A stretch of DNA of 64,000 nt from Gammaproteobacteria bacterium (GTDB lineage Bacteria > Pseudomonadota > Gammaproteobacteria > Ga0077536): contig CAXXLL010000003.1 of NCBI GenBank assembly GCA_963662545.2, positions 32,001 through 96,000 of the forward strand. The letters run 5' to 3'. Below are positions 12,871 through 52,683 of the stretch, one piece after another. Below the pieces are notes generated by a model. That model saw only the letters and a list, made by a program, of their open reading frames with translations, was not told the origin of the DNA and ran no database searches. The stretch's first letter is position 1, and each line of letters begins with the position of its first letter. The position numbers and the translations under genes are program-made.

Positions 12871-12908
12871 ATTGCGATCGTAAATCGGAACCGCGAGTTT
12901 ATTAACTA

Positions 12909-14605: not shown

Positions 14606-14613
14606 TAACTAAG

Positions 14614-27726: not shown

Positions 27727-27753
27727 GATCGGCGGGTAAGCCCCACCTAGCAA

Positions 27754-29450
27754 GTGTCCGTCCATAAACAGGCATTTTCTTCGATGGGCACGGAGAAATC
27801 GAGGTGTTGAAAGTAGGTTGTTGGAGCGGTAGCGGCGGTTCGGTGGGGGTCGAAGGGCTCTTCGAGCGTAATTGTGAGTACGTTCGCCGGCCGCAGAGCG
27901 TTGCAACCCAAAGTCGCCCGTTCGACGATATCGAGGAGGTCAGTTAGTGCGAGTGAACGTCGCTATTCGAGTTGATAGCGCGCGAGCAGGCTGAGGTTGT
28001 AGGCGACCACAGAAGACCACACGTAGGCTTCGAAGTGCGGCAGGCTCTTCCAGGTGCAACGTGCCAATCCGTATGCACGCTTCAGGCAGGAGATACCGGC
28101 CTCGATGCCGGCGCGGAAGTTGCGCAAGCGTCGATAGACCCACTGACTCTTGACCATGTCGGCGATCGCGAGCCCGCGCTTCTTGTGGAAGGCAACGTCT
28201 TCGATGCCTTCTGCTTTCGCCGCCCGGAGATTGTCGAGGCTCGCATAGCCGCCATCGGCGGCGACCTGTCGTGGCATCGTCCCGTAGTGTGTTCGATGCC
28301 GTTCGAGCATCGGCATGAAGCGCTGACTATCGACCGGATTGCCTCGCTCGATGACCACGTCGAGGATGAGGCCACTGCGCCCCGAAGCCAGATTGATTTT
28401 GTGTCCGTACTGAACGTCGCGCGCACCCTTTATGATGATGTCGGTATGCGGCTCGAACAAGCTCACGCACTTCTCGCTCGCGGGGACCTTCTCACCGCCG
28501 AACACCCGCCGCTCAGTTTGCGAAATCACCTGCAGAACAAGTGTTTCGTAGTGCGCTACCTGCGCTAGCCAGTCCGGCAGTTCAACGCCGGTGACGCCCG
28601 GGCTCAGCAGCTGCTCACGTACCCTCGCTACCGCTTCCAAGGTTGAACGCGTCGCCCCAATCAAATCGCGATACAGACGTTGGCGTTGCTTCGCACCACG
28701 CGCATACCACAGCGCCCGCGCACGCTTCTTCGCCAATCGAGTGTGGTTCACGAAGCACAACTCCGGCGCGCCAGGCAACTCGCGCGCCTGTGCGAGCAGA
28801 CGAACCACAACACGCACGCCATCCCACAGCAGATGACTGTCGCTCGGCGCGTGGATGGCACTGTCCGTTACCGTGCTATCAATCCGTACACGCTGTGCCG
28901 GCTCAATGCGCGTCTCTTTCGCCGTCGCCAGCAGGGCGCGATGAATAGACTCCCACGTCGATACCTGGATCGCCGAGACCACCCGCTGTAAGGCAGACTT
29001 CTTCGGACGTTCATTACCCGGCAACCGGGCGAAGGCTTGAAAGCTCGCCGAGTCCTGCAGGTGAAAGGCCAGCTCCTCGTAACTCAATTGCCGGTGCTGC
29101 TTGAGCACCGCGCAGCGCAGCACCGACTCCGCCGACAGTCCGCGTCGACCGGTGGGCTTCAAACCCCGCCGACACAGATCGTTCATGACCGGCGTGAGGA
29201 CCTTGGGGTGAGCATCGAGCCACTCGGACATGCCCTGCAGCTCTCGCCCCAGGTCATGGTCAGCAAACAGCTCGTATATACTCGCTTGGGCCGTGCGTTT
29301 CTGACGCATTCCCCCTCCTGTGGTGTCGATGATTGTGTGGAAAATCAGAGGTTTGAAGTTCCATTAGATCACGACCCACCGGAGGTTTCGATCCCTTAAG
29401 CGACAAATTTTCCTTTTTATTTCAACCGCATCGCGTTTAGGGATGCACAC
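27754..29450 (-). mobile_element. insertion sequence, ISNCY/IS5-like, copy 2 (1697 bp, inverted relative to copy 1)
   Basis: same ends and length as 12909-14605; at least 2 SNPs seen; flanks tatcta / ttgcta are not a perfect direct repeat. Confidence 0.92.
27963..29309 (-). CDS. DDE transposase (protein identical to 13050-14396)
   Basis: identical 448-aa translation. Confidence 0.93.
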   Translation of the reverse strand: MRQKRTAQASIYELFADHDLGRELQGMSEWLDAHPKVLTPVMNDLCRRGLKPTGRRGLSAESVLRCAVLKQHRQLSYEELAFHLQDSASFQAFARLPGNERPKKSALQRVVSAIQVSTWESIHRALLATAKETRIEPAQRVRIDSTVTDSAIHAPSDSHLLWDGVRVVVRLLAQARELPGAPELCFVNHTRLAKKRARALWYARGAKQRQRLYRDLIGATRSTLEAVARVREQLLSPGVTGVELPDWLAQVAHYETLVLQVISQTERRVFGGEKVPASEKCVSLFEPHTDIIIKGARDVQYGHKINLASGRSGLILDVVIERGNPVDSQRFMPMLERHRTHYGTMPRQVAADGGYASLDNLRAAKAEGIEDVAFHKKRGLAIADMVKSQWVYRRLRNFRAGIEAGISCLKRAYGLARCTWKSLPHFEAYVWSSVVAYNLSLLARYQLE

Positions 29451-29461
29451 TAGATAGATCG

Positions 29462-30976: not shown

Positions 30977-31138
30977 GGAACCTCTGAATAAGTCATGGTG
31001 CGTCTGAATTGTTCATGCAATCGTGCAGATCAAGGCACGAATCGCAGGTCATAGCGGGGGCTAGGGCTAAGGTTCGTAACGTAAGGCTCCGCGATTTCAT
31101 GGGCAAGGCAGATGGGCCATGACTTATTCAGAGGTTCC
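30977..31138. mobile_element. MITE (162 bp, non-autonomous)
   Basis: 22-bp perfect terminal inverted repeat ggaacctctgaataagtcatgg / ccatgacttattcagaggttcc; no ORF; partial copy at 4161. Confidence 0.8.
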
Positions 31139-39311: not shown

Positions 39312-40129
39312 GCGCACTGATCTTCGAGTTGCTCGACCCACCGGGGCGCAGTCTCGACCTCGCGGGCTTGAATCCCGCCAGCCTCGCCGGAAAATCGCTC
39401 GATGCAATCCGCCGGCTGCGCCTCCCGTATGGCCGCCGGCGGAAAGCACTGGGTGATCTTTTCAAGGTATCGGGGGACGCATCTTCCGAACTCAGCATCC
39501 TCGGCGTCAACCGGCACTGCCACCAGATCGGCCGGGGCATGGCTGACGGCATACTCGTCGTCCGCGGCCATGCCGGCGACGGTCTCGGGCGCGAAATGAG
39601 CGGCGGTCAGATACGTGCGAAAGGCAACGCCGGCGACGGCGTCGGCGCCGGCATGACGGGCGGTAGCATCACACTCACCGGATCTGTCGGCGACCGCGCG
39701 GGTGGTCTCGTTCCCGGTGCGACCCGCGGCATGAACGAAGGCATGATCCGGATTGGAAAATCTGCCGGCGCGAGGACGGGTGAACGCATGCGGCGGGGCT
39801 TTATTGTCATTGCGGGCGATGCGGGAGCGCACACCGGCGAGCGTATGATCGCCGGCACCATCGTCGTACTCGGCCAGTGCGGTGTCCACCCTGGTATTGG
39901 CATGCGCCGCGGCACGCTGCTGCTCGCCAAAGCGCCCACCTCGATGACACCGACGTTCAACGACTGCGGTGAATTCGAACTCGCGATCATCGCGATCCTA
40001 AAGAACTACATCGCCTCTCATGACCGCCGTCTAAAGCGCAGGCTCGAAATCTTCACCCGTGCGCGCCGCTGGTGCGGTGACATGTCATACGGCGGCAAGG
40101 GCGAAATCTTCATTGCGAGCGAGAACTGA
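39308..40129 (+). CDS. fhcC: formyltransferase/hydrolase complex subunit C
   Basis: GXGXG beta-helix repeats, RMRRG, MIAGT; ATG overlaps the fhcD stop. Confidence 0.92.
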   Translation: MSALIFELLDPPGRSLDLAGLNPASLAGKSLDAIRRLRLPYGRRRKALGDLFKVSGDASSELSILGVNRHCHQIGRGMADGILVVRGHAGDGLGREMSGGQIRAKGNAGDGVGAGMTGGSITLTGSVGDRAGGLVPGATRGMNEGMIRIGKSAGARTGERMRRGFIVIAGDAGAHTGERMIAGTIVVLGQCGVHPGIGMRRGTLLLAKAPTSMTPTFNDCGEFELAIIAILKNYIASHDRRLKRRLEIFTRARRWCGDMSYGGKGEIFIASEN

Positions 40130-40139
40130 GAGCGGATCC

Positions 40140-41804
40140 ATGCCCACCAAGCGCATTGACAGAAAAGGAAGGTTTCGCGGACGCGCGCTCGACGACGAGG
40201 CCGTCGCGCAGGTCGTGGGCCTCGTCGGCCAGGGTCCGTACCGACGCGATTTACTGATCGAATACCTGCATCTCATTCAAGACGTGCACGGCTGCCTGAG
40301 CGCCGAACACCTCGTGGCCTTGGCGCATTGTCTGCGATTGTCGACCACGGAGGTTTACGAAGTCGCCACTTTTTATCATCATTTCGATGTCGTCACCGCG
40401 GATGAGAAACGCCCGCCGGATCTGACCGTCCGGGTGTGCGATTCGATCACCTGCGAGATGTTCGGCGCGAGTGCGCTCTTCGATGAACTCGATGAGATTT
40501 TCGGTGAGAAGGTACGGGTGCAACGCGTGCCCTGCGTGGGCCGCTGTCACGGCGCACCCGTCGCGGTTGTCGGTCAGAACGCGATCGAACGCGCCGACAC
40601 CGCGAGCCTGATCGAACGGGTCGAACAGTGTGCGACGGCACCGCAGCCGACCTCGCATATCCCGTTCGACGAATACTGCAATGTCGGTGGATACGAGCTG
40701 TTGAAAAAATGCGTAAGGGGTGAAATCCAACGCGAGGCGGTCATCGACATCCTGGCCGATTCCGGCCTGCGAGGACTGGGCGGCGCCGGATTTCCGGCCG
40801 GCCGGAAATGGAGCATCCTGCGCGGCCAGCCGGCGCCCCGGCTGATCGCGGTCAACATCGACGAAGGCGAGCCGGGAACATTCAAGGATCGCTACTACCT
40901 CGAACGCGATCCGCACCGGTTCCTCGAGGGCTTGCTGATCGCCGCGTGGGCGATCGAAGCCGAGGGCTGCTATATCTACCTGCGAGATGAATATGCCGCG
41001 TGCCGCCGCATGCTCGTGGACGAACTCACACGCCTCGCCGCCGATCCGCCGGCGCCGCTCCCCGTCATGGAACTTCGCCGCGGTGCAGGCGCTTATATCT
41101 GTGGTGAAGAGTCAGCCATGATCGAATCGATCGAAGGTAAACGCGGCATGCCCCGGCTGCGCCCGCCTTACGTCGCCGAAGTCGGGCTGTTCGGGCGGCC
41201 GACGCTCGAACACAATATGGAAACCCTCTACTGGGTCCGCGATATCGTGGAAAAAGGGGCCGCATGGTTCAGCTCGCACGGCCGTCGCGAACGCTCGGGC
41301 TTGCGGGCATTCTCCGTCAGCGGCCGCGTCAACAACCCCGGTGTGCATCTGGCACCGGCGGGGATCTCGGTCAGCGAACTGATCGATGAATATTGCGGCG
41401 GCATGCTGGACGGCCATGCCTTCTACGGCTACTTCCCGGGCGGCGCGTCGGGCGGGATCCTCCCCGCCAGTCTCGGCGACCTGCCCCTCGATTTCGACAC
41501 GCTGCAGGAATACGGGTGCTTCATCGGCTCGGCAGCCATTATCATTTTGTCGGATCAGGACAATGCGCGGAGCGCGGCGCTCAATGCCATGCGGTTCTTC
41601 GAGCACGAATCCTGCGGTCAATGTACCCCGTGCCGGGTCGGCACTGCGAAGGCCGCGACGCTGATGGAGCGGCCCGCCTGGGATGCCCCGCTGCTCGAAG
41701 ATTTGGCGCGGGCCATGGAGGACGCATCGATCTGCGGCCTCGGGCAGGCGGCGCCGAATCCGCTGCGATGTGCAATAAAATACTTTCCGCAGGAATTCGA
41801 GTGA
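40140..41804 (+). CDS. NAD-dependent formate dehydrogenase beta subunit (fused NuoE/NuoF-like, Fdh1B type)
   Basis: RRDLLIEYLHLIQD, GLRGLGGAGFP, DEGEPGTFKDR, GAYICGEES, ESCGQCTPCR. Confidence 0.9.
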   Translation: MPTKRIDRKGRFRGRALDDEAVAQVVGLVGQGPYRRDLLIEYLHLIQDVHGCLSAEHLVALAHCLRLSTTEVYEVATFYHHFDVVTADEKRPPDLTVRVCDSITCEMFGASALFDELDEIFGEKVRVQRVPCVGRCHGAPVAVVGQNAIERADTASLIERVEQCATAPQPTSHIPFDEYCNVGGYELLKKCVRGEIQREAVIDILADSGLRGLGGAGFPAGRKWSILRGQPAPRLIAVNIDEGEPGTFKDRYYLERDPHRFLEGLLIAAWAIEAEGCYIYLRDEYAACRRMLVDELTRLAADPPAPLPVMELRRGAGAYICGEESAMIESIEGKRGMPRLRPPYVAEVGLFGRPTLEHNMETLYWVRDIVEKGAAWFSSHGRRERSGLRAFSVSGRVNNPGVHLAPAGISVSELIDEYCGGMLDGHAFYGYFPGGASGGILPASLGDLPLDFDTLQEYGCFIGSAAIIILSDQDNARSAALNAMRFFEHESCGQCTPCRVGTAKAATLMERPAWDAPLLEDLARAMEDASICGLGQAAPNPLRCAIKYFPQEFE

Positions 41805-41866
41805 GATGGATGCAAAGATCGCCGAAGGTACCGTGATCCGCTTCAAGCTCGATGGGCGCGAGGTCG
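41748..41866 (+). repeat. direct repeat 1A (fdh beta 3' end plus abortive fdh alpha start)
   Basis: 119 bp, 12 mismatches (counted by eye) to 42747-42865. Confidence 0.9.
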
Positions 41867-42014
41867 CTTCTCGCAATGCCGAGCCCCGCTACGCCGCCGC
41901 CCGAGGTATCGTTCTGTCGTCACACCGCGAACCGGGCCGCTTCTCAGCGTCGACGCGCGCGCTCGAAGCCCGTCGCAGCATCTCGAAAAACCCGCTTTGA
42001 ATGATCGTTGTCTA

Positions 42015-42314
42015 TCAATGGTAATCCTCTTCGCGCTGATGGCGAATCGCGAGTATCGTCACAGTGGATGGATCTTCGATCTCGAACAAGACCACGTACC
42101 CTGCCGATCCGAAAGGGATCAGGAGTTCACGCAGGAATGGATTGGTGTCATCCGCCTTGCGGCAGCTAAACGGAAAATCCTGCAGGAATTCGACGGCTTT
42201 GGCTATCGCATCACGAGCCCTCCTGGCTGCTTGAAGGTCCCTCTCAAGCAGGTATTCGTAAAGACGGAACAGATCCTCCCGTGCTACCCGGGTATAACGG
42301 ATCCGATAGCTCAA
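42015..42314 (-). CDS. type II TA toxin, RelE/ParE family
   Basis: Y-I-YT--AREDL-RLYEYL, PFSCRK, RELLIPFGSAGYVVLF, ILAIRHQRE. Confidence 0.88.
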   Translation of the reverse strand: MSYRIRYTRVAREDLFRLYEYLLERDLQAARRARDAIAKAVEFLQDFPFSCRKADDTNPFLRELLIPFGSAGYVVLFEIEDPSTVTILAIRHQREEDYH

Positions 42315-42592
42315 TCCTCTGAGCCCACACCGCGAGACTCAGCCACTTTGAGCATGTCATCAAGTTCAGAAAGAACGACATCAGCGGCGTAATACTCATT
42401 GGTCCGCTTTGCTTCATCGCGGGAAACCAAGCCACGTGAAATGAACTCCTCACGCACCTGCCGATGCAATATGGATGCTTTTATGGATTTTTCTACGAAA
42501 CTCGACAGACTCTCCCCCTCAGTCAGGACACTTTCAGCAGCTTTTCGTAGTTCGGGGGTCACTCGAAGTGTTGGAATATTGGCAGTTTTCAA
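42311..42592 (-). CDS. putative antitoxin (YlcI/YnfO-like, ribbon-helix-helix)
   Basis: KTANIPTLRVTPELRKAAESVL--GESLSSFVE; 4-bp overlap with the toxin. Confidence 0.8.
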   Translation of the reverse strand: MKTANIPTLRVTPELRKAAESVLTEGESLSSFVEKSIKASILHRQVREEFISRGLVSRDEAKRTNEYYAADVVLSELDDMLKVAESRGVGSED

Positions 42593-42606
42593 AATGACCT
42601 CTTGCG

Positions 42607-42623
42607 ACGCATTTGCGATGCGT
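42607..42623 (-). promoter_or_regulatory. putative TA autoregulatory operator
   Basis: acgcat-N5-atgcgt inverted repeat just upstream of the antitoxin start. Confidence 0.5.
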
Positions 42624-42746
42624 TAAGTATGGCGTTAATTACCGGACTGGGCAAGTGGCCGATACCTTTATGAATACCTCGTGCCAGGTTATTGGTGTGG
42701 TTCAATAGGATTTTGAGGGATCTGACCCTGAGATGTCCTCGGATAC

Positions 42747-42865
42747 GCAGCGCCAAATCCGTTGCGATGCGCAATAAAATACTTTCCGGAGGAATTCGAA
42801 TGAGATGGACGCAAAGACCGCCGATCGAACCGTGATCCGCTTCAAGCTCGATGGCCGCGAGGTCG
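42747..42865 (+). repeat. direct repeat 1B (orphan fdh beta 3' end plus functional fdh alpha start)
   Basis: 119 bp, ~90% identical to 41748-41866. Confidence 0.9.
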
Positions 42866-45564
42866 AAGCGCTGCCCGGCGAAACCATCCTCAATGCCGCG
42901 CGCCGCACCGGTACCGAGATCCCGACGCTGTGCCACATGGACGGCTACCGTGCGGACGGCAATTGCCGCGCCTGCGTGGTCGAGATCAAGGGCGAACGCG
43001 TGCTCGCACCGGCGTGCTGCCGCCTGCCGAGCGAGGGGATGGAAGTGGAAGCCAGCAACGAGCGCGCGCGGTTTAGCCAGCGCATGGTCGTCGAAATGCT
43101 GCAATCCGATATGCCCGAGGGCGGCGCTTCGCCCTACACACCGCGTTCCGAACTCGACCATTGGTGCGAATTTCTCGGTGTCACCGAACCGCGTTTCCCA
43201 CGGCGCGCACAACCGCAAAAGGACCTCTCCAACCCGGCGATCGCCGTCAATCTCGACGCCTGTATCCAGTGCACGCGCTGTGTGCGAGCGTGCCGCGAGG
43301 AGCAGGTCAACGATGTCATTGGCTATGCCTTCCGCGGCACACATTCGAAGATCGTGTTCGATCTCGGCGACCCCATGGGCGACAGCACCTGCGTGAGCTG
43401 CGGCGAATGCGTGCAGGCCTGTCCGACCGGCGCATTGATGCCCGCCGAAGGCGCCGCCAATTTCGAGCCCGATCGCCAGGTCGAGTCGGCCTGTCCGTAT
43501 TGCGGTGTAGGCTGCCTCCTGACCTTCAATATCAGGAACGATCGCATCATCTACGTCGACGGCCGCGACGGCCCGTCGAACAACAGTCGCTTGTGCGTGA
43601 AAGGCCGCTACGGCTTCGATTACGTCCATCACCCCGATCGGCTGACCCGGCCCTTGATCCGCAAAGAGGGCGCCGCAAAGAGCTCCGAACTACTGACCCC
43701 GTCAGATATACCTGCATACTTTCGAAACGCGAGCTGGGACGAAGCCCTTGCATTCGCGAGTGGCGGACTCAAGGCTATACGCGATGCGCAAGGCGGCCAG
43801 GCGCTCGCAGGATTCGGCTGCGCCAAAGGCTCCAACGAGGAGGCGTATCTGTTTCAGAAGCTGGTCCGAACGGGCTTCGGCACGAACAACGTCGATCATT
43901 GCACCCGTCTTTGTCATGCATCGTCCGTGGCAGCGATGTTGGAGACCATCGGCTCGGGCAGCGTTTCCAACCAGGTGGCTGACGTGGCCCAGGCCGAAGT
44001 GATCATCGTGATCGGTGCGCGGCCGACGATGAACCATCCGGTCGCCGCCACTTTCATGAAGAACGCGGCCAAGGCCGGCACGACCCTGATCCTGATGGAT
44101 CCCTACCGCGCCGATCTCGCGCGGCACGCCGATTATTTTCTCCAGTTTCATGCGGACACGGACGTGCCGCTGCTGAACGCCATGATGCATACCATCATCG
44201 ACGAAAACCTGCACAATCCGGCGTTTATCGAAGCGCACACCGAGGGTTTCGAATCGCTCCAAGCCTGCGTGACGAACTACAGCCCGGAAAAAGTCGCTCC
44301 CATCTGCGGCATTCCCGCCGCCGCCATCAAGGAGGTTGCCCGCAAGTATGCGACGGCCAAGGCGTCCATGATTTTCTGGGGCATGGGGATTTCGCAGCAT
44401 GTTCATGGCACGGATAATGCGCGCTGCCTGATCGCGCTCGCCTTGCTCTGCGGGCAGATCGGCCGGCCGGGTTCCGGCATCCACCCGCTGCGCGGTCAGA
44501 ATAACGTTCAGGGCGCCTCGGACGTCGGTTTGATCCCCATGGTTTATCCGGATTACCAACCCGTCGGGGACGAAGCGGTACGGCGCAAGTTCGAAAAATT
44601 CTGGGGCACCGAACTCGACCCCAACCCGGGTCTGACGGTCGTCGAAATCATGGATGCCGTGCACGAAGGCGCGATCAAGGGTATGTACATCATGGGGGAA
44701 AACCCGGCGATGTCGGATCCCAATCTCAATCATGCGCGTGCAGCCCTGGCGAAGCTCGAGCACCTGGTCGTGCAGGATATTTTCTTCACCGAGACGGCGG
44801 GGTTCGCTGACGTGATTCTGCCGGCGTCGGCGTTTCCGGAAAAAACCGGTACCTTCACGAACACCGATCGACGCGTGCAAATAGGCCGCCAGGCCATCGA
44901 GCCGCCCGGCGATGCGCGCCACGATATCTGGATCATCGAGGAAATGGCGAGGGGCCTCGGCCTCGACTGGAATTACTCGGGCGTCGATGCCGTATTCGAC
45001 GAGATGCGTGCGGCGATGCCCAGTATCGGCGGCATCACATGGGACCGCCTGCAACGCGAACATTCCGTGACCTATCCCTGCACGCGCGAAGGCGATCCAG
45101 GGCAACCGATTCTGTTCGAACAGGATTTTCCGACGCCGAACGGCCGCGGTAAGTTCGTACCGGCCGAATACACCCATGCCGCCGAGCTGCCCGACGACGA
45201 ATATCCGAAAATATTCATGACCGGCCGTCAGCTAGAACACTGGCACACCGGAAGCATGACCCGCAACGCGCGTGTCCTCGACGCACTGGAGCCGGAACCC
45301 GTGATCAACGTTCACCCGACGGATATGGACGAGATCGGGGTCGAAGCAGGCGAATTCGTGCGCGTCGAATCACGGCGCGGCGCCGTCGTGGCCCGCGTGC
45401 GAGCGGATAGCGGAATGCAGACCGGTTCGATCTTCATGGCGTTCTGCTACGTGGAAGCGGCGGCTAACCTGCTGACCACCGAAGAACTCGATCCCGTCGG
45501 AAAGATCCCGGAATTCAAATACTGCGCCGTACGAATTTCAAGGCAGAAGGCCAAAGTCGCCTGA
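42805..45564 (+). CDS. formate dehydrogenase alpha subunit (Fdh1A-like, Mo/W-bis-PGD, Cys ligand)
   Basis: N-terminal 2Fe-2S/4Fe-4S motifs, CPYCGVGC, HCTRLCHAS, PLRGQNNVQG, PEFKYCAV. Confidence 0.93.
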   Translation: MDAKTADRTVIRFKLDGREVEALPGETILNAARRTGTEIPTLCHMDGYRADGNCRACVVEIKGERVLAPACCRLPSEGMEVEASNERARFSQRMVVEMLQSDMPEGGASPYTPRSELDHWCEFLGVTEPRFPRRAQPQKDLSNPAIAVNLDACIQCTRCVRACREEQVNDVIGYAFRGTHSKIVFDLGDPMGDSTCVSCGECVQACPTGALMPAEGAANFEPDRQVESACPYCGVGCLLTFNIRNDRIIYVDGRDGPSNNSRLCVKGRYGFDYVHHPDRLTRPLIRKEGAAKSSELLTPSDIPAYFRNASWDEALAFASGGLKAIRDAQGGQALAGFGCAKGSNEEAYLFQKLVRTGFGTNNVDHCTRLCHASSVAAMLETIGSGSVSNQVADVAQAEVIIVIGARPTMNHPVAATFMKNAAKAGTTLILMDPYRADLARHADYFLQFHADTDVPLLNAMMHTIIDENLHNPAFIEAHTEGFESLQACVTNYSPEKVAPICGIPAAAIKEVARKYATAKASMIFWGMGISQHVHGTDNARCLIALALLCGQIGRPGSGIHPLRGQNNVQGASDVGLIPMVYPDYQPVGDEAVRRKFEKFWGTELDPNPGLTVVEIMDAVHEGAIKGMYIMGENPAMSDPNLNHARAALAKLEHLVVQDIFFTETAGFADVILPASAFPEKTGTFTNTDRRVQIGRQAIEPPGDARHDIWIIEEMARGLGLDWNYSGVDAVFDEMRAAMPSIGGITWDRLQREHSVTYPCTREGDPGQPILFEQDFPTPNGRGKFVPAEYTHAAELPDDEYPKIFMTGRQLEHWHTGSMTRNARVLDALEPEPVINVHPTDMDEIGVEAGEFVRVESRRGAVVARVRADSGMQTGSIFMAFCYVEAAANLLTTEELDPVGKIPEFKYCAVRISRQKAKVA

Positions 45565-45629
45565 ATTTCTAATCGACCGTTCTGAACGCACAACGTATCC
45601 GGGAAATCGTGGGCCAAATCGCACCGACC

Positions 45630-45660
45630 CCCGGATTGCGCTGCGCTTCATCCGGGCTAC
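45630..45660 (-). repeat. GTAG-type REP element
   Basis: reverse complement gtagcccggatgaagcgcagcgcaatccggg forms a hairpin with a GTAG foot. Confidence 0.65.
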
Positions 45661-45674
45661 GGCCTTCATAGGTG

Positions 45675-46058
45675 TTATGTGGCTCTTGATTTAGAGTAGA
45701 GTTTGACATCCCTTAGTCCCTTGAAATCGGTATCTTGGGTCCACAGAACTGCGCCATATTTCTGTGCGGTTGCATAAATAATGCTATCCGCCAACGGCAA
45801 TTTGTGTTCAATACCGTAACAGGCGGCATCTACAGCCAGCTCGCTGTCCAGGGATACAACTTTTCCTTGCTCCATATGAGCTATTGCTTCAAGGGCTGAT
45901 TCTTCGTCCCTCTGACGCACAATGCTCTTGAAAACCTCGGTAATGGTGATACTGGGCACCAATAACTCTTCTAAAACCTCTATCGGTTTAGCGAATGAGC
46001 CCGCATTCTTGTCGCCGGCGAAATATGATAACCATCCCGATGAGTCGACGACATTCAT
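45675..46058 (-). CDS. type II TA toxin, VapC/PIN domain
   Basis: VVDSSGWL, ITEV, LPLADSIIYATA, LWTQDTDF acidic PIN residues. Confidence 0.9.
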   Translation of the reverse strand: MNVVDSSGWLSYFAGDKNAGSFAKPIEVLEELLVPSITITEVFKSIVRQRDEESALEAIAHMEQGKVVSLDSELAVDAACYGIEHKLPLADSIIYATAQKYGAVLWTQDTDFKGLRDVKLYSKSRAT

Positions 46059-46261
46059 ACCCTGTCTTTATCTCGCCTTACATTCGTATCAATGCCTTTC
46101 AGGAAGCCTCTCATTTTCTTCATGGGCTTTATAGGAATGAGTTCGATCCGATTTTGATAGGTGAGAACTTGAATCTTCTGGCCGGAATATATTCCCATTG
46201 ACTCCCGCACTTTTTTGGGAATCACGATTTGATATTTCGGTGAAACGGTTACAGCAGTCAC
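46055..46261 (-). CDS. AbrB/MazE/SpoVT family antitoxin
   Basis: VSPKYQIVIPKKVRE; 4-bp overlap with vapC; upstream TTGACG-N17-TATCGT promoter-like sequence. Confidence 0.88.
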   Translation of the reverse strand: MTAVTVSPKYQIVIPKKVRESMGIYSGQKIQVLTYQNRIELIPIKPMKKMRGFLKGIDTNVRRDKDRV

Positions 46262-46425
46262 GGCCGATACTCCATCGATAATAGCACCGTTTTACGATAT
46301 CTCTATCGATAAGCTCCGTCAAGCCACGTAACGAACGAGTCTCACGGATCCCCACATACTCGCTAGGAAAAGCGATCGAAAACTAATGAGATGTAGGTGC
46401 ACCGAACCTCAATTAAGCGCGCGAG

Positions 46426-47200
46426 CACGAACACCGATCGACGCGTGCAAATAGGCCGCCAGGCCATCGAGCCGCCCGGCGATGCGCGCCACGATATCTG
46501 GATCATCGAGGAAATGGCGAGGGGCCTCGGCCTCGACTGGAATTACTCGGGCGTCGATGCCGTATTCGACGAGATGCGTGCGGCGATGCCCAGTATCGGC
46601 GGCATCACATGGGACCGCCTGCAACGCGAACATTCCGTGACCTACCCCTGCACGCGCGAAGGCGATCCAGGGCAACCGATTCTGTTCGAACAGGATTTTC
46701 CGACGCCGAACGGCCGCGGTAAGTTCGTACCGGCCGAATACACCCATGCCGCCGAGCTGCCCGACGACGAATATCCGAAAATCTTCATGACCGGCCGTCA
46801 GCTAGAACACTGGCACACCGGAAGCATGACCCGCAACGCGCGTGTCCTCGACCTACTGGAGCCGGAACCCGTGATCAACGTTCACCCGACGGACATGGAC
46901 GAGATCGGCGTCGAAGCGGGCGAATTCGTGCGCGTCGAATCACGGCGCGGCGCCGTCGTGGCCCGCGTACGGACGGATCCCGGGATACAGCCCGGCAGCC
47001 TATTCATGGCGTTTTGCTATGTGGAAGCTGCCGCGAATTTGTTGACGACCGAAGAGCTGGACCCGGTAGGAAAGATCCCCGAATTCAAATATTGCGCAGT
47101 GAGATTGAGGAAAGCCATTGACAATTCAGCTCCGCGCTCCCACATTCCACGGTTTAATTCCGCACAGGGCGATGGTCGCGAACGAGACGGGCATCGATGA
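46426..47200 (+). pseudogene. orphan duplicate of the fdh alpha 3' end (direct repeat of 44856-45530) with a different C-terminal tail
   Basis: offset 1570 bp; near-identical 5' part, strongly diverged at synonymous sites in the last ~130 bp; frame open to 47200. Confidence 0.9.
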
Positions 47201-47212
47201 GTCCGCAACACA

Positions 47213-48334
47213 ATGCCCCAACCTGAAGCGCTCTCAAATCTATCCCCGGCGAAGAAGCTCCTGGCCGGGCTGCTCACTCTGCTTGTTTTGGGTGCGGGTA
47301 TCCTCGCCCTTGCGGAAGGGGCGGTGCGGGTGCGTGCCTGGATCAAATACGGCTCCGCCGATCATTTCGACGAGATGTACTACTACGACGAGCAACTGGG
47401 GCTCAAATACGTGGTGCCGAACTACCGCACCCGGACTGTACAGGTCAATTCGATCGGCTTCCGCGGACCGGAGCTGGAAGTCAAGTCCGAGTCGACCTTG
47501 CGCATCGGGTTCCTGGGAGGTTCGACGACCTTTTGCGCGGAGGTGAGCGGCAACGATCAGGTGTGGGCGGCTTTGCTCAGCGCCAATCTACAATCGGCCT
47601 TTCCCGGGCTTGATGTCGATTACGTCAATGGTGGAGTACCCGGGTATACCCTCGAACAGTCTCTCAAGAACCTCGAACGGCGAGTCGCCCCGCTCGATCC
47701 AGACGTCATCGTTATCTACCACGCTTCAAACGACATGACCGGAGAGACTCGCGAGCTAGCGAAGGAATCAGGAATATTGCGCGAATTTCATCGGGACCCG
47801 AGCTGGCTCGCACGACATTTCCTGCTTTGGCATCTTGCGGAAATGAATCTAAAGATCCTTCTAGTCAAACGGGAAGGCGACGAACAGAAGCTGAAGTTAT
47901 TTCCCGATGACTTCGGCGCCGAATTCGATCAGAAGTTGGAACACCTGATCGCGAGTGCTCAGAAAGTCGCCGAAATCGTCGTGGTAGTGACCTGGACCCA
48001 GCAAATTCGCGAGCAACAGTCACCCGCACAACAACTCGAGGCCGCATCGTCCGGCTTGTACTACATGCCGTTCATGACCCCGACGAGTCTCCTGGAAGCC
48101 TACGGACGTTACAATACAGCGATTCGAAACGCCGCCACCCGTACCGGCGCCATTCTGGTTGAGGAGGAGAATTCCATTCCGGGCGATGGCGCGCATTTTA
48201 ACGACACCGTGCACTTCAAAGACGCTGGCAGTCGAGCGATGGCGGACCGCATCGCCCGCCGGCTACTGGAATCGCCGCGACTGAAAGCGCTCGTCCAAAA
48301 GAAGCTCCTAAACTCGATGGAGAAGAAATCGTGA
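47213..48334 (+). CDS. SGNH/GDSL hydrolase family membrane-anchored protein
   Basis: NSIGFRG, LGGSTTF, NGGVPGY, ND, DTVH. Confidence 0.8.
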   Translation: MPQPEALSNLSPAKKLLAGLLTLLVLGAGILALAEGAVRVRAWIKYGSADHFDEMYYYDEQLGLKYVVPNYRTRTVQVNSIGFRGPELEVKSESTLRIGFLGGSTTFCAEVSGNDQVWAALLSANLQSAFPGLDVDYVNGGVPGYTLEQSLKNLERRVAPLDPDVIVIYHASNDMTGETRELAKESGILREFHRDPSWLARHFLLWHLAEMNLKILLVKREGDEQKLKLFPDDFGAEFDQKLEHLIASAQKVAEIVVVVTWTQQIREQQSPAQQLEAASSGLYYMPFMTPTSLLEAYGRYNTAIRNAATRTGAILVEEENSIPGDGAHFNDTVHFKDAGSRAMADRIARRLLESPRLKALVQKKLLNSMEKKS

Positions 48335-48720
48335 CGCCGGTTCGTCAGAGCAATCGTGCCTTCGCATTAATGTTCGCAATCGTGTTCGCGATCATCACTT
48401 TGCTTGGTTGGTTTTTCTTTGAAAAGACGCCCATTTGGGCGGTTTGGGTAAGTGGCGCGCTGTTATTGGTTGCCTGGGTGTGCCCTGGGGTCCTGCTGCC
48501 GCTGAATCGATTGTGGGGTCTTTTCGCGTTTCGGCTCGGCACGGTGAGCAACGTACTTGTCCTGGGTATCGTACTTTACGGAATATTCGCACCCCTAGCA
48601 TTCTTCTTTCGAGTTATCGGCCGTGATTTGATGAATCGCGACATGGATCCAGCGGCCGATACCTATCTGACCCGGGTCGATCGCCAGATGGATTCAAACA
48701 GTCTCGACGACATGTACTAA
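48331..48720 (+). CDS. SxtJ family membrane protein
   Basis: NRAFALMF, P--LLPLNRLW, GRDLM, TY; context with DUF5989 and carbamoyltransferase. Confidence 0.75.
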   Translation: MTPVRQSNRAFALMFAIVFAIITLLGWFFFEKTPIWAVWVSGALLLVAWVCPGVLLPLNRLWGLFAFRLGTVSNVLVLGIVLYGIFAPLAFFFRVIGRDLMNRDMDPAADTYLTRVDRQMDSNSLDDMY

Positions 48721-48730
48721 GGAATTGCCT

Positions 48731-48883
48731 GTGATCTCGTTGTTCAAAGAAATCCTGAAGTATGTAATAGCTTCCAAGAAGCTATGGCTATTACCAATCA
48801 TTGTGCTGCTAGTCGCGCTCGGTGGGCTCCTTGTGCTGGCCGAAGGGACCGCGTTCGCGCCGTTCATTTACGCTATCTTCTGA
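48731..48883 (+). CDS. DUF5989 (SxtK-like) small membrane protein, not in the ORF track
   Basis: 50 aa MISLFKEILKYVIASKKLWLLPIIVLLVALGGLLVLAEGTAFAPFIYAIF; KK-WLLP and APFIY--F signatures. Confidence 0.85.
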   Translation: MISLFKEILKYVIASKKLWLLPIIVLLVALGGLLVLAEGTAFAPFIYAIF

Positions 48884-48921
48884 CGGGCTCATTTCGGGCC
48901 ATTAACACGACTGGGCTATTC

Positions 48922-49297
48922 ATGCTTGTCCTGGGAATATCTGCTTTCTATCACGACAGCGCTGCCGCTCTCGTAAGGGATGGCGAGATTGTGGCCGCCG
49001 CCCAGGAAGAGCGATTCTCGCGAAAGAAGGGTGATTCCGACTTCCCCACCGGCGCCGTAAAGTTCTGCCTGGAATCGTGCGGCGTCTCGGTCGACGAAAT
49101 CGACTTCGTGGGGTTTTACGATAAGCCGCTGCTGACATTCGACCGCTTACTTGAGACCTATCTCGGTTATGCCCCGAAAGGACTGCCGTCATTCCGTAGA
49201 TCGATTCCACTTTGGGTAAAGGAAAAATTGCTCATCAAGAAAACGGTCCGAGAGCAGATCACTCATCTCGGACTCGGCGATCTTCCCGAACGTAAAG
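48922..49297 (+). pseudogene. NodU/CmcH-type carbamoyltransferase, 5' fragment truncated by IS21
   Basis: LGISAFYHDSAAAL, AAAQEERFSRKK; only ~125 codons before the IS end; remainder absent beyond the IS. Confidence 0.88.
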
Positions 49298-49499
49298 TGT
49301 CAACGGCGGAGCAAAATTAGTCCACCCGGGCGGAGCAAAACTAGTCCACTTAACGTTATGCGGTACGCAGTGTTGGGGGGTTGTCCCGGTAGTCCATAGG
49401 AGGGACCCGCGCTGCTTCGTGTAGCGCTTGCGTTACGCGGAGCGAAGCAGCGTGGGAGGTTCCTGTGGACCCACACCGGGTCAACCTTGAGTTCGGTGG

Positions 49500-50270
49500 T
49501 CAAGCAGGCGTATTTGGGGATTTCCGCCGTTTTTGGCTTTGGTTGAGACGATAGCTCTCGCCGTTCATTTCCAGGATATGGACAGGGTGGGTCAGGCGGT
49601 CCAGCAAAGCCCCGGTCAGACGTTCCGAGCCGAATATCTCCGTCCACTCATCGAACGGCAAGTTGGAGGTCACCATGATCGAGCCCCGCTCGTAGCGCTG
49701 GCTGAAGACTTCGAACAGCAGCTCGGCGCCGGTCTTCGAGAGCGGCACGAAGCCGAGTTCGTCGATGATCAGAAGGTGATACTTTGCCAGTTGCTTCTGC
49801 AGGCGCAACAGGCGTTTTTCATCCCTGGCCTCCATCAGTTCATGAACCAGGGCGGCGGCCGTGATGAAGCCGACGGAGAGCCCCTTTTGGCAGGCCGCCA
49901 GACCGAGACCGAGGGCGATATGGGTCTTGCCGGTTCCGCTGTTGCCGAGCGCGATGATATTCTCACGACGCTCTACGTATTCGCATCGCGCCAACTCCAG
50001 AACCAGCATCTTGTTGAGCGAGGCGATGGCCTTGAAGTCGAAGCTGTCGAGGCTTTTGACGGCGGGGAACCTAGCCTGTCTGCTCCGCCGCTCGACCATG
50101 CGGCGCTCACGGTCGATCAGTTCCAACTCGGTCAGACGGACAAGATACCGCACAGGGTCGGCGCCCTCGGTGGCGCATTGGCGGGCCAGCTTGTCGTATT
50201 CGCGCAGGAACGTCGGCAGTTTCAGGGTCTTGAGGTGATGGGCCAGCAACACTTGCGGCGTATCGGTCAT
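49500..50270 (-). CDS. istB: IS21 helper ATPase
   Basis: GNSGTGKTH Walker A, LLIIDELGF, TSNLPF, ALLDRL. Confidence 0.95.
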   Translation of the reverse strand: MTDTPQVLLAHHLKTLKLPTFLREYDKLARQCATEGADPVRYLVRLTELELIDRERRMVERRSRQARFPAVKSLDSFDFKAIASLNKMLVLELARCEYVERRENIIALGNSGTGKTHIALGLGLAACQKGLSVGFITAAALVHELMEARDEKRLLRLQKQLAKYHLLIIDELGFVPLSKTGAELLFEVFSQRYERGSIMVTSNLPFDEWTEIFGSERLTGALLDRLTHPVHILEMNGESYRLNQSQKRRKSPNTPA

Positions 50271-51766
50271 GACGCGCCTCCACCCAACAAGCTCATATAA
50301 CTGGCGGCGGCCGTGGTCGCCACGTTGGCCCGAGGCAGGTAGGGATAGATATCCAGGTCGAGTTTGGGCGGGCGTCGCTCGATACGGCACAGCACAAGGT
50401 GTTTGACGGCGTCGTAGCCGATCGCGCCCAGGCGCAGGGCGTCCTTCACCGCGCCGTGAAGCACCTCGAGATCGAAGGTCTCCAGAAGCCGAAGGACCTG
50501 GACGTATTCCCGCTTGCCGGCCTTGCCCATGCGCGCCTCCAGGAGACGGCGCAGGGTTGGGAAGGCATCAGGCAGTTCCCATCCGGCTAGCGGCGCGGCC
50601 TGATCCAGGGCACCGATCTTGTGCTCCAGCAAAGGCAGGTAGTGGATCGGATCGAAGACCCTATCTTCCCGGTCGTAGGAACGGGGGTGTCGGGCAATGA
50701 TCCCGGCGCCGCAACCGATAACCACCTCGTGGACATAGCCACGGATCCAGACTTCCTGATGGCCGTAGGCGACGGGCACGGAATAGTCATTCGTCCGGTA
50801 GCGCACCAGGGACAGCGAGTTGACCCGCGTGCCCTGCTTGTCGCACGCGTCGAACGGTGCCGGCAGTGGCCTCTTCAACGCTTCGCGGTCACGCACAAAC
50901 CGTTCGCCGATGCTCTCGCGGTGGCCGCGCAGGACGTCGTCTTGCCGTTTGCGGCATTGTTCCTCCAGGTAAGCGTTGAAGGCGTCCCAGCTCGCGAACC
51001 GGGGAAGCGGCGTCATGAAGTTCCGTCGGGCGTAGCCAACCACCCCCTCAACATTGCCTTTGTCGTTGCCCTTGCCGGGACGGCCGTAACGGTCCTCGAA
51101 GAGGTAATGGGACTGCAGTCCGCTGAACGCTCGCGTTCGTTGTCGCGTGCCATCCGGCAAGATGCGCGACACCAGGCACTTGTCGTTGTCGTAGAGAATC
51201 GATCGGGGAACACCGCCGAAGAAGGCGAAGGTTCTGTTGTGCCCGTCCAGCCAGGCCTCCGTCGTCGCTGACGGGTAGGCCGCAACGAAGCAGGCATCGC
51301 TGTGGGGAAGTGTCATGACGAAAAAATGCGCCCGATACTTGACGCCGGCGATGATCGCATCCGCCTCGCCAAAGTCCGCTTGAGCATGGCCCGGAGGATG
51401 TGACAACGGCACAAACATCTCACGCCGACGAAGGCGCCGTTCCCGAACGTAATCCTTCACGATGGTCTCTTTGCCCGTGAAGCCATGTTCGTCGCGAAGG
51501 CGCTCGAATATACGCTTCGCCGTGTGGTGCTGCTTACGGTGAACCGTTCGGTCCTCCTCCAGAATACGGTCGATGATATCCGTGAAGGGGGCCCGTTTCG
51601 GGCGTTTCGGTGGCTGGCGTCGCCGATATCCCGGCGGTTCCGAATGCCGCAGCATCTTCCTCACCGTCTCGCGCGCAATGCCAAACCGACTTGCCGCCTC
51701 TCGCTGGCTCAGACCATCAACATGGCAGGCCAGCCGAACGCGCAGATATAGGTCCACGGTGTACAT
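50267..51766 (-). CDS. istA: IS21 transposase
   Basis: AQADFG, ILYDN, KGNVEG DDE motifs; stop overlaps the istB start. Confidence 0.95.
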   Translation of the reverse strand: MYTVDLYLRVRLACHVDGLSQREAASRFGIARETVRKMLRHSEPPGYRRRQPPKRPKRAPFTDIIDRILEEDRTVHRKQHHTAKRIFERLRDEHGFTGKETIVKDYVRERRLRRREMFVPLSHPPGHAQADFGEADAIIAGVKYRAHFFVMTLPHSDACFVAAYPSATTEAWLDGHNRTFAFFGGVPRSILYDNDKCLVSRILPDGTRQRTRAFSGLQSHYLFEDRYGRPGKGNDKGNVEGVVGYARRNFMTPLPRFASWDAFNAYLEEQCRKRQDDVLRGHRESIGERFVRDREALKRPLPAPFDACDKQGTRVNSLSLVRYRTNDYSVPVAYGHQEVWIRGYVHEVVIGCGAGIIARHPRSYDREDRVFDPIHYLPLLEHKIGALDQAAPLAGWELPDAFPTLRRLLEARMGKAGKREYVQVLRLLETFDLEVLHGAVKDALRLGAIGYDAVKHLVLCRIERRPPKLDLDIYPYLPRANVATTAAASYMSLLGGGAS

Positions 51767-51933
51767 CCTCCCGCCTTCCATCTCAAAAAAGATCGAAGGC
51801 TACAGGTGGCAGAGTTTTACTCCGCCCGCGGCTGGGAAATCCCGCCGCTTCCGTGGACTAATTTGTCACCGCCGTTCTCACGTATGTAGCATAGGCAATC
51901 AACTGACCTTGACTAGAGATCGAAAAGGCGCCC

Positions 51934-52683
51934 TCAACCCAATGGATCTATCCGACTTAATTCAAGTAACTCACGTATCAAGGGTTGCGCATTGTTTCGC
52001 GACGGAACCTCCGTCTCAATGCGATACAAATAACCCGGCAGCTCATCGCACACGATGAAGGAATAGCTCTTGTTCGCAAAGCGTTCGAATAATTCGCGTT
52101 TGGGATCGTTGAGATACGGCTGAAAGCTGATCTCGAAGCCCTGCCACTCGCGGCCGTCAAATGTAAATGTCTTCGGCGTCACCGTCGCGGATTGCGCCAG
52201 GGCGAACTTGATGCGCCGCTGGAAATAGCGCCAGCGTTCGCGCGAACCTCCATCGGGATCGGTCAGCCTGTTCATTTCGTAGACATCGCCCTGCAGATAC
52301 ACCTTTATCACCGGGTTTACGGTCGCGCTGTCGACGGGTGATACGGGGAAATTGCGTTCGCCAGTCAAAAACTCGACCGACGCGACCTTGGTTCCATCGT
52401 CGTTAATTTTCTGGATTACGAATCGGACTCGATCGGAAAACCCGGTTTCGAGCGAACCTGCCTTTTCAAAGTGGTAAGTCAACTCCATCGCATGCGATAC
52501 CGATTTCAACTGATCGGTGAGCCACAATCGAGTCTCGGCCTCGGAAAACTCGATGCCATCGGCTGCCTCGGGTTCCTGGGCGGTGACGTTCGACCACACT
52601 ACTGTGATCGTGATAACGGACAGGCACAAGCTTGCAATAGCTTGGTGAAACCACCGATATTTCGCCAATCGACTAATCATCAT
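51934..52683 (-). CDS. hypothetical exported protein downstream of xoxJ
   Basis: signal-peptide-like N-terminus; overlaps the xoxJ stop; no recognised motif. Confidence 0.65.
   Translation of the reverse strand: MMISRLAKYRWFHQAIASLCLSVITITVVWSNVTAQEPEAADGIEFSEAETRLWLTDQLKSVSHAMELTYHFEKAGSLETGFSDRVRFVIQKINDDGTKVASVEFLTGERNFPVSPVDSATVNPVIKVYLQGDVYEMNRLTDPDGGSRERWRYFQRRIKFALAQSATVTPKTFTFDGREWQGFEISFQPYLNDPKRELFERFANKSYSFIVCDELPGYLYRIETEVPSRNNAQPLIRELLELSRIDPLG

Follow-up and report, generated by a model that had tools for sequence, protein, structure and literature searches.

The fds locus and its two cassettes

This analysis concerns two small toxin-antitoxin (TA) operons that interrupt an NAD-type formate dehydrogenase (fds) gene pair, fdsB and fdsA, and that are each enclosed by direct repeats made of pieces of the fds genes themselves. 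They lie in a stretch of 64,000 nucleotides (nt) of gammaproteobacterial DNA (contig CAXXLL010000003.1, positions 32,001 to 96,000), referred to here as the window. The repeat pairs are called R1 and R2, and the unique sequences that they enclose are cargo 1 and cargo 2. The fds assignment follows from the Pfam architecture of the two proteins. By Pfam, the gene content of the window is of a methylotroph type, with tetrahydromethanopterin (H4MPT) pathway genes (mch and fhc/ftr-like), a pyrroloquinoline quinone (PQQ) dehydrogenase gene and, as an earlier note on this DNA had remarked, comEC, which is found at 9800-12085 on the minus strand.

The locus was compared with 80 loci (L001-L080) gathered by an FdsA scan of genome contigs, among which the window's own genome is not represented. 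The closest relative found is L001, a Pseudomonadota metagenome-assembled genome (MAG) that is about 92% identical at the nucleotide level. Its allele was used as a proxy for the native allele in the analysis of chimeras, and it is in this sense that native and foreign are used below. The features are as follows.

40059..41804, plus strand: fdsB-like gene (NuoE/NuoF-type subunit), full length at 581 amino acids (aa); Pfam 2Fe-2S_thioredx, Complex1_51K, SLBB and NADH_4Fe-4S
41738..41866: R1 copy 1, composed of 67 nt from the end of fdsB, the 1-nt spacer and 61 nt from the start of an fdsA allele; left part native, right part foreign
41806..42000, plus strand: remnant open reading frame (ORF) of 64 aa, in which 20 codons of the foreign fdsA start run into cargo 1; no Pfam family
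41867..42736: cargo 1, 870 nt; absent from L001 and L019, matched in 0 of 80 loci
42015..42314, minus strand: ParE/RelE-family toxin, 99 aa (Pfam ParE_toxin, E=1.2e-16)
42311..42592, minus strand: YlcI/YnfO-type antitoxin, 93 aa (NCBIfam NF041551, E=1.8e-11, 43.9 bits against a cutoff of 30)
42737..42865: R1 copy 2, a foreign fdsB 3' remnant including the stop codon, then the native start of the working fdsA
42805..45564, plus strand: fdsA-like gene (molybdopterin subunit, by Pfam), full length at 919 aa and chimeric, native to ~45398 and from there a foreign allele to the stop codon
44856..45530: R2 copy 1, inside the working fdsA
45397..45564, plus strand: foreign-allele fdsA 3' end, with the tail ...VRISRQKAKVA
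45531..46425: cargo 2, 895 nt, comprising the foreign fdsA tail, a hairpin-bearing downstream spacer, and the vapBC genes together with the region upstream of them; not present in L001 or L019
45630..45660: hairpin-forming element of 31 nt just past the foreign fdsA stop codon; unique in the window
45675..46058, minus strand: VapC (PIN) toxin, 127 aa (Pfam PIN, E=2.4e-16)
46055..46261, minus strand: AbrB/MazE-type antitoxin, 68 aa (Pfam MazE_antitoxin, E=1.5e-7; TIGR01439 AbrB, E=1.4e-13)
46278..46322, minus strand: two overlapping promoter-like sites upstream of the vapB-like gene; consensus matches only, with 3 in the region against 2.9 expected
46426..47113, plus strand: R2 copy 2, a displaced native fdsA 3' fragment without its last ~20 nt, running into foreign sequence

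Geometry of the repeats

Both repeat pairs were recovered by self-BLAST and by a repeat search. R1 pairs 41738-41866 with 42737-42865; its copies are direct, 129 nt long and 88.4% identical (15 mismatches, 0 gaps), lie at a spacing of 999 nt, and span the fdsB/fdsA junction, from 67 nt before the end of fdsB across the single spacer nucleotide to nt 61 of fdsA. R2 pairs 44856-45530 with 46426-47100, again as direct copies, which are 675 nt long and 94.4% identical (38 mismatches, 0 gaps) at a spacing of 1570 nt. This repeat consists of 675 nt of fdsA counted from nt 2052 of the 2760-nt gene and ends ~30 nt short of the stop codon; the 267-aa ORF of its second copy matches Pfam Molydop_binding. 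At 129 and 675 nt, both repeats exceed the >30 bp taken as the mark of a long target duplication. Self-BLAST of the 64-kb window revealed no close direct repeats other than these two. As a feature of the sequence the structure is genuine and far exceeds what chance would produce.

Despite both insertions, one intact fdsB and one intact fdsA are kept: residues 1-581 of FdsB align with L001 at 92% identity, and residues 1-919 of FdsA align with it end to end. Thus far the locus is as the earlier note had described it, with two TA pairs between direct repeats of formate dehydrogenase coding sequence and one full-length copy of each gene, and the circles of 999 and 1570 bp predicted there equal the measured repeat spacings.

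Empty sites in relatives

L001 is collinear with the window over 32030-56356 at 91-96% nucleotide identity, and lacks both cassettes. Its fdsB (8254-9996) and fdsA (10001-12757) are contiguous, leaving the site of cargo 1 empty, and its sequence past fdsA resumes at window position 52003, leaving the site of cargo 2 empty as well. Both copies of each repeat align to one segment of L001, 9933-10061 for R1 and 12052-12739 for R2, and the same holds for L019, a more distant locus (~76-78% nucleotide identity in the fdsA region, FdsA 82% identical in amino acids) that is also empty at both TA sites. The second copy of R2 (46426..47113) is 95.9% identical to L001 12052-12739.

Relative to L001, the window therefore carries three insertions, namely cargo 1 with a 129-nt copy, cargo 2 with a 675-nt copy, and a 4.9-kb block at 47114..52002. 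This block encodes a GDSL-like hydrolase, an SxtJ-like protein, a small membrane ORF, a carbamoyltransferase cut after ~178 aa, and the istB/istA genes of an IS21 insertion sequence (IS). It abuts R2 copy 2, has taken the place of ~120 nt of the L001 sequence and has cost the displaced fdsA fragment its final ~20 nt. All three departures from L001 over these 24 kb are thus grouped at the fds operon.

Allele mosaic of the repeats

The two copies of R1 are not uniformly diverged. Over the left 53 nt, copy 1 agrees with L001 at 96% and copy 2 at 86%; over the right 76 nt the relation is reversed, at 85.5% for copy 1 and 94.7% for copy 2. When the 15 differing sites are read in order, the copy that matches L001 gives the series 111111212222222. 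A single switch, placed between 41790 and 41801 in both copies, explains 14 of these 15 sites, and only 30 of the 6435 possible site arrangements would fit a single switch equally well. In both copies the half adjacent to the cargo is the foreign half. R1 is thus a reciprocal chimera of native and foreign alleles, not a plain target duplication. Copies of a plain duplication should be more alike than either is to the empty site; the R1 copies are 88% identical, against 95-96% between their native halves and L001.

In R2 the mismatches are concentrated at the right end, where the final 132 nt contain 31 of them against 7 in the preceding 543 nt (Fisher p=2e-17). The copies are 77% alike in this divergent part, where copy 2 is 91% identical to L001. 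At 45399-45528, one or other copy matches L001 at 29 of the 31 differing sites, and at 27 of these it is copy 2. The foreign fdsA end finds its best match in L019 (85% over 168 nt), and L001 is outside the six best matches listed. R1 shows the pattern that integration of the Campbell type would leave, in that both of its copies are chimeric at the same switch point. In R2 a visible chimera is confined to copy 1, and no part of this repeat except the left 543 nt behaves as a duplication of the recipient target. R2 copy 2, which lacks the final ~20 nt of fdsA, is a dead remnant; the working fdsA relies on the imported end.

Most of the differences between the copies are synonymous, as the earlier note had proposed. 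For R2, 27.5 synonymous and 10.5 nonsynonymous differences give a ratio of nonsynonymous to synonymous rates (dN/dS) of 0.10; the fdsB part of R1 (6 synonymous, 3 nonsynonymous) gives 0.11, and its fdsA part (3 and 3) gives 0.27. Values of ~0.1 suggest that both alleles evolved as working genes in separate lineages. This agrees with the site patterns relative to L001 and L019, and the view that the copies are alleles from other lineages and not fresh duplications is thereby upheld. The foreign arms of R1 are closest to L001 (~85-86%) and the foreign tail of R2 is closest to L019, and these different nearest donors point to two separate acquisitions.

The cargos

Both TA pairs are antisense to the fds genes. 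The G+C fraction drops to 0.44-0.51 within the cargos (by feature, 0.48-0.56 for cargo 1 and 0.44-0.50 for cargo 2) compared to 0.59-0.66 in the fds genes, so that the orientation and the higher A+T content claimed in the earlier note are both borne out by measurement. In each pair the toxin and antitoxin genes overlap by 4 nt, at 42311-42314 and 46055-46058. Both have the gene layout of a type II TA operon, that is, two small, adjacent and co-oriented genes of which one belongs to a known toxin family and the other to an antitoxin or DNA-binding family. The cargos, at 870 and 895 nt, are far smaller than the 20 kb allowed for such insertions and contain TA genes only, with no other mobile-element genes. 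The identities first read from the letters, a ParE toxin in the one and an AbrB/VapC pair in the other, agree with the Pfam and NCBIfam matches, except that the first antitoxin, labelled there as ribbon-helix-helix (RHH)-like, is of the YlcI/YnfO type according to NCBIfam; this ORF (42311-42592) has no match in Pfam.

Relatives of these genes are found on plasmids of distant taxa, as would be expected for mobile modules. The gene pair of cargo 1 is 65-70% identical in nucleotides to annotated RelE/ParE and YlcI/YnfO pairs on Burkholderiales plasmids, and the VapC of cargo 2 is 60% identical in amino acids to annotated VapC proteins whose genes are paired with AbrB/MazE genes on Leptospira plasmids. 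At the DNA level, cargo 2 has no plasmid match, and neither cargo has a phage match. The non-coding flanks of the window cargos were compared with all loci by tblastx and blastn, and no remnants of earlier host genes were found.

The 31-nt hairpin at 45630-45660 has a counterpart of 32 nt after the fdsA of L018 (4481-4512, opposite strand), with 30 of 32 nt (93.75%) the same. Because it recurs after the fdsA of L018, whose flank matches that of L007, we read it as the downstream region of the donor's own fdsA, which fits a cargo 2 that starts with a genuine foreign fdsA end and spacer. A reading as a repetitive extragenic palindromic (REP) element associated with a RAYT transposase was ruled out, as the hairpin is unique in the window; it seems to be an fdsA-downstream element of the donor lineage and not a dispersed repeat. 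Some lineages may conserve this element (45630-45660, and 4481-4512 in L018) in their fds operons as a terminator-like or REP-like sequence.

Recurrence in other loci

The 80 loci and the window, together 1.44 Mb, were scanned for close direct repeats. Four repeat pairs with copies no shorter than 100 nt and no less than 85% identical surround a unique segment of 0.8-1.1 kb, and in all of them (4/4) this segment holds a TA pair: the two in the window, one in L018 and one in L046. Four different TA families are involved, and in three of the four cases the pair is antisense to the host gene. The search among relatives proposed in the earlier note has therefore yielded two cases beyond the window.

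In L018, a gammaproteobacterial MAG, fdsA is followed by a normal spacer, a nucleotidyltransferase/HepT-like (MNT/HepT-like) pair and then the final 187 nt of fdsA once more; the two copies are 95% identical and spaced 1283 nt apart. Its TA assignment is weak (Pfam E=1.7e-4 and 6e-4, with NCBIfam MntA/HepT matches below the cutoff). The related locus L007, which is 92.5% identical to L018 in nucleotides, has the same MNT/HEPN genes past fdsA, and its contig ends within them. L018 is also the one instance of the expectation that other cargo would occupy the same fdh sites elsewhere, here at the fdsA 3' end. In L046, a Methylococcaceae MAG, an antisense pair of a HigB-like gene (Gp49, E=9e-21) and a helix-turn-helix (HTH) gene stands between 147-nt repeats (92.5% identical, spacing 998) that overlap the last 57 nt of a ribulose-phosphate 3-epimerase (rpe) gene.

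A heuristic based on pairs of small ORFs (42 pairs, 80 ORFs) found only two further TA pairs, in L006 at the locus edge and in L078. It missed the pairs of L018 and L046, and thus gives no reliable TA denominator.

Several other repeats were set aside. L004 has a 100% identical direct repeat of 1215 nt (1-1215 and 1803-3017) in an IS110-type transposase region at the locus start, which is a tandem IS or an assembly artefact. The repeats of L064 and L027 are short, dispersed and intergenic, those of L051, L060 and L067 are paralogue pairs at 65-74%, and that of L007 is a 40-nt repeat around a membrane-protein gene. L085 (NZ_CP062172.1, the megaplasmid of Mycetohabitans rhizoxinica B49, a finished genome) was not counted as a clean case. 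There, an antisense ParE/YlcI-YnfO pair lies between direct repeats of at least 2.2 kb and 91% identity, 6471-8700 and 10242-12431 (471-2700 and 4242-6431 in the coordinates of L082). Each repeat contains a 1356-nt gene annotated as a hypothetical protein, the locus boundary interrupts a third such gene, and the whole lies in an island rich in IS elements and TA genes; it is possibly a larger-scale version of the repeat-TA-repeat architecture.

Variation is also seen at the spot just past fdsA in MAGs of the Binatia. It is empty in L068, holds a 195-aa ORF in L073, L075 and L066, and holds this ORF together with a PIN/RHH pair in L078 and L072. The ORF, which we take to be Uma2-like in appearance, has no NCBIfam match; in L073 it overlaps 59-nt direct repeats at 12728-12786 and 13260-13318. 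A different kind of repeat fills the exceptionally long spacer (280 nt) between fdsB and fdsA in L003, where exact 55-nt copies (4977-5031 and 5132-5186) stand 155 nt apart and resemble a small intergenic repeat element.

Known types of mobile element

Readings of the cassettes as a known type of mobile element were also examined. No recombinase domain is found by Pfam in either cargo, in agreement with the earlier note, nor among the 60 largest non-overlapping ORFs of the window, where the only mobility genes are DDE transposase genes at 13050-14396 and 27963-29309 and the IS21 istA/istB genes at 49500-51781. A site-specific integrative element is not indicated, as there is no integrase in the 64-kb window and no short core common to the four cassettes, although an enzyme encoded elsewhere in the genome could still act in trans. 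A transposon, IS or miniature inverted-repeat transposable element was rejected, since no terminal inverted repeats occur at the ends of the four cargos and the repeats are 129-675 nt of coding sequence. An integron cassette was rejected in the same way, with no attC-like hairpins or inverted repeats at the four cargo ends and no intI among the window ORFs. The region 41000-48000 has no Rfam family at E<=1. The four cassettes have no junction motif in common, and their target sequences are unrelated.

Elsewhere in the window, the two DDE transposase genes belong to a 1704-nt IS present in two inverted copies (12903-14606 and 27753-29456) that are 99.8% identical (3 mismatches), each with a 448-aa DDE_Tnp_1 transposase. 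They bracket ~13 kb that includes ribonucleotide reductase and ABC-transporter genes, an arrangement like a composite transposon or a substrate for inversion. Long imperfect palindromes are present at 18-182 and 30977-31138, as self-inverted BLAST matches of 170 and 164 nt at 71-73%, and a 45-nt piece of the latter matches 4161-4205 in inverted orientation at 87%.

Origin of the cassettes

The arrangement is probably, though far from surely, the work of a TA unit without a recombinase of its own, which uses a fragment of a host gene as a homology arm, integrates by homologous recombination and is kept from looping out by addiction. The window would then hold two independently acquired addiction-module cassettes, each a type II TA operon with its own promoter region, and each operon would travel linked to a fragment of a conserved host gene that serves as the arm. 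Recombination of the RecA type with the recipient's own gene would insert the unit, in the manner of Campbell-type integration or insertion-duplication. The product would be a cargo between two chimeric copies of the fragment with one intact gene preserved, and the enzymes of the host would suffice. For R1, a single reciprocal crossover would take place between the chromosome and a unit made of the cargo plus one foreign 129-nt junction, present either as a 999-nt circle or in a linear, ends-in form. For R2, a 1570-nt unit may have formed or last resided in a close relative ~1.3% diverged, so that it carried the native 541 nt together with the foreign tail and crossed over in the near-identical part; alternatively, gene conversion may have homogenised the left arms, or a template switch during replication may have copied a foreign segment of fdsA tail, hairpin and vapBC and re-entered at 44856.

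Direct repeats of 129-675 nt should recombine readily, and so such an insert is unstable unless its loss is penalised. Addiction would penalise loop-out and allow TA cargo to persist. From the known behaviour of addiction modules, this may also be why a TA pair is the cargo in all four cases, since only cargo that punishes its loss is likely to persist between repeats. The circular or ends-in intermediate, the route of transfer, the dependence on RecA, and the activity and addictive effect of the TA pairs may each be as described. Transfer by natural transformation is possible; the presence of comEC does not show competence.

Several observations weigh against this explanation. One R1 site, 41771, is off the pattern. 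In R2 the left ~541 nt of copy 2 are native-like (97.2% to L001, 98.7% to copy 1); as this is the arm adjacent to the cargo, a circle from a distant donor is insufficient by itself, and one must postulate either that the unit was mosaic or that gene conversion followed. Thus, R2 needs an extra step or assumption compared to R1. Of the single-crossover integration proposed in the earlier note, the R1 half is favoured by the reciprocal chimera at 14 of 15 sites and by the empty sites in L001, while the native-like left arm of R2 speaks against it. Even the R1 pattern could stem from two crossovers inside the repeats, if the donor itself possessed the repeat-cargo-repeat structure. This would require both exchanges to be in register and no more than ~60 nt from the cargo, a requirement that argues only mildly against such an origin. 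Natural transformation imports linear single strands, and the delivery of a 1-1.6 kb circle is not straightforward. Tblastn with the four TA proteins and blastn with both cargos against the 80 loci recovered nothing except the 32-nt hairpin, so that movement of these particular units is undocumented. Nor are the fds genes a preferred attachment site: none of the 74 other fdsB/fdsA junctions holds cargo (largest gap 280 nt), and a second fdsA fragment occurs at 1 of the 67 other fdsA 3' ends. In L078, and also in L072, the PIN/RHH pair replaces the spacer past fdsA with no detectable duplication. L043, an Eremiobacterota MAG contig, has a tandem duplication of ~1.34 kb (7613-8956 and 8953-10293) with frameshifts and no cargo. 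It covers the 3' two-thirds of fdsB and the fdsA start at 91% identity overall (77-96% by segment), and may be a real allelic insertion-duplication without cargo or a concatenation of haplotypes by the assembler. Finally, the comparison loci L001-L080 are MAG contigs or draft assemblies.

Among the alternatives, we consider it unlikely that the cassettes were inserted in situ with a long target duplication, by break-and-copy or template switch, so that no fragment travelled with the cargo and the foreign arms were acquired later by allelic recombination or gene conversion. R2 suits such an origin well, because both of its left arms are native-like (97% to L001, with 7 differences between them in 543 nt) and a template switch into a foreign segment of fdsA tail, hairpin and vapBC and back to 44856 would give its exact structure. 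The process is also documented for restriction-modification (RM) systems, with repeats of up to ~420 bp in Table 3 of PMC2853133. It is R1 that does not conform, as its copies differ from each other (88%) more than its native halves differ from L001 (95-96%), and the foreign halves are adjacent to the cargo on both sides. This is the opposite of the RM cases given in the same source, where, for example, the left and right repeats agree at 417/423 and each repeat agrees with the empty site at 345/370 and 343/370 (PMC2853133). Later in-register exchange limited to the two cargo-proximal halves would be an unlikely coincidence.

An assembly artefact, in which concatenated haplotypes or chimeric reads produced an arrangement present in no cell, is improbable. 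The comparison loci being MAG contigs, and the cargo-less 91% tandem duplication with frameshifts in L043 resembling a concatenation of haplotypes, would both suit it. Concatenation gives copy A followed directly by copy B, as in L043, and produces neither unique cargo in between nor reciprocal chimeras; in the window the reading frames are kept and fdsB and fdsA are intact. The architecture is, moreover, found in three separate assemblies with differently styled contig names (the window, L018 as c_000000019785 and L046 as k141_...), and L007, at 92.5% identity to L018, independently has the MNT/HEPN genes past fdsA. More improbable still is that the cassettes are integrase-less remnants or satellites of site-specific elements, such as cis-mobilisable elements (CIME) or elements acting in the manner of e14 at icd, moved in trans by a tyrosine recombinase or XerCD. 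Cassette 2 and L018 do bring a complete fdsA 3' end and spacer that displace the native end, and this replacement resembles what is seen with elements that integrate into the 3' ends of protein genes. R1 is located at a gene junction and not at a 3' end, there is no recombinase in the 64-kb window, and three unrelated targets (the fdsB/fdsA junction, the 3' part of fdsA and the 3' end of rpe) are used with repeats of 129, 675, 187 and 147 nt. No common core or inverted repeats are present at the cargo ends, although no search was aimed at a dif-like site.

Integration of a travelling unit by homologous recombination thus remains our preferred account. Much more tentative, and in our judgement rather doubtful, is its extension to a general mode of recombinase-free movement of addiction modules (TA and, by extension, RM) between species. 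A non-replicating unit of 1-2 kb would here use a host-gene fragment as a portable attachment site, enter by the host's homologous recombination any genome that has the gene, loop-out would regenerate the unit, and the unit would persist because loop-out kills.

Relation to known systems

Campbell-type integration is known as a laboratory tool (suicide vectors) and for plasmids and phages with replication or transfer functions. The cassettes share with it the homology-cargo-homology product, copies that are both chimeric at the same switch point, a unit length equal to the spacing (999 and 1570 nt) and loss by the reverse crossover. They differ in that the unit would be a natural element of 1-1.6 kb, consisting only of a TA operon and a host-gene fragment. 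Chromosomal superintegrons contain TA pairs with their own promoters as ~1-kb cassettes without a recombinase of their own, which are thought to stabilise the array. These are similarly compact, whereas the flanks found here are host coding sequence, without attC-like ends, an Rfam match or an intI gene in the window.

The closest likeness is to the insertion of RM gene complexes with long target duplication, for which the founding paper is said to be that of Nobusato et al. in 2000 (Gene 259:99). Furuta, Abe and Kobayashi in 2010 described RM genes that are accompanied by no mobility gene and are flanked by repeats (46 to ~420 bp) with a single counterpart in the empty-site genome (PMC2853133). 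According to the available text of that paper, the insertions occur mostly in naturally competent species, DNA breakage by the restriction enzyme is suspected in the insertion, and a virus-like cycle of invasion, amplification and release is hypothesised, while it is stated that there is no evidence for a step of 'subsequent infection' (PMC2853133). The supposed novelty of the cassettes must accordingly be narrowed, as both the insertion with long target duplication and the invade-amplify-release cycle had already been described there for RM.

The cassettes resemble these RM insertions in being small addiction-type complexes without a mobility gene, between repeats (129-675 nt here) far longer than the duplications made by transposases. 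In both, the repeats align to a single empty-site copy, some overlap the 3' end of a host gene, and the insert is lower in G+C than its surroundings. Unlike the RM insertions, the cargo is a type II TA pair (ParE/YlcI-YnfO or VapC/AbrB) with no restriction and modification genes, and toxins of these families supply no DNA breakage of the restriction type. A further difference is the reciprocal chimerism with a foreign allele that is seen in one repeat pair at least, which bears on the step of 'subsequent infection'. The cassettes thus represent a variant, with TA cargo, of an insertion type known from RM systems; the fds genes have no special standing as a target. In the available text of a 2014 review that covers both RM and TA systems, the long-target-duplication mode is ascribed only to RM (PMC3874152).

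For chromosomal TA systems, a recent survey of 80 of them (Belot et al. 2026, PMC13617665) states that the mechanisms of acquisition "have remained poorly characterized", and, in its available text, proposes entry mediated by mobile genetic elements, Tn3 res sites, and double crossover at flanking core genes. The TA islets described there are, like the cassettes, lone chromosomal pairs; they are located between core genes, have been acquired more than once at a given site, and behave as selfish, addictive modules. They differ in that a double crossover in intact flanks leaves no duplication, and the term 'direct repeat' occurs 0 times in that text. Another comparison is offered by the pneumococcal tvr locus, where recombinase-driven excision and reintegration of circles of ~1-1.5 kb with TA homologues is reported (PMC6265443). 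Small circles bounded by direct repeats, a TA-like pair and the idea of retention by addiction are common to both; in contrast, the tvr process depends mainly on a recombinase encoded at this single locus, and the experiments presented in the available text found no TA addiction. A full-text search, to which subscription journals were largely closed, returned no paper in which type II TA pairs are flanked by long duplicated stretches of host genes.

Implications

The cassettes offer a concrete route by which TA operons could be placed in a chromosome without any enzyme encoded by the element, and extend a neglected observation on RM systems to TA systems. The reciprocal chimera of R1 is evidence at the sequence level that a homology arm arrived with the cargo. 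The suggested rule is that any DNA may be inserted in this way, and that only addictive cargo survives the instability of the flanking repeats. Such cassettes also produce partial gene duplicates and chimeric alleles in core metabolic operons, which annotation and MAG quality checks may misread as errors.

If addiction modules do have the more general mode of movement between species, the repeat halves next to the cargo would carry along with them a record of earlier hosts. Such a mode would also supply the missing step of release and reinfection in the proposed life cycle of RM systems, and would explain lone TA pairs that are found between or inside core genes with no mobile element nearby.

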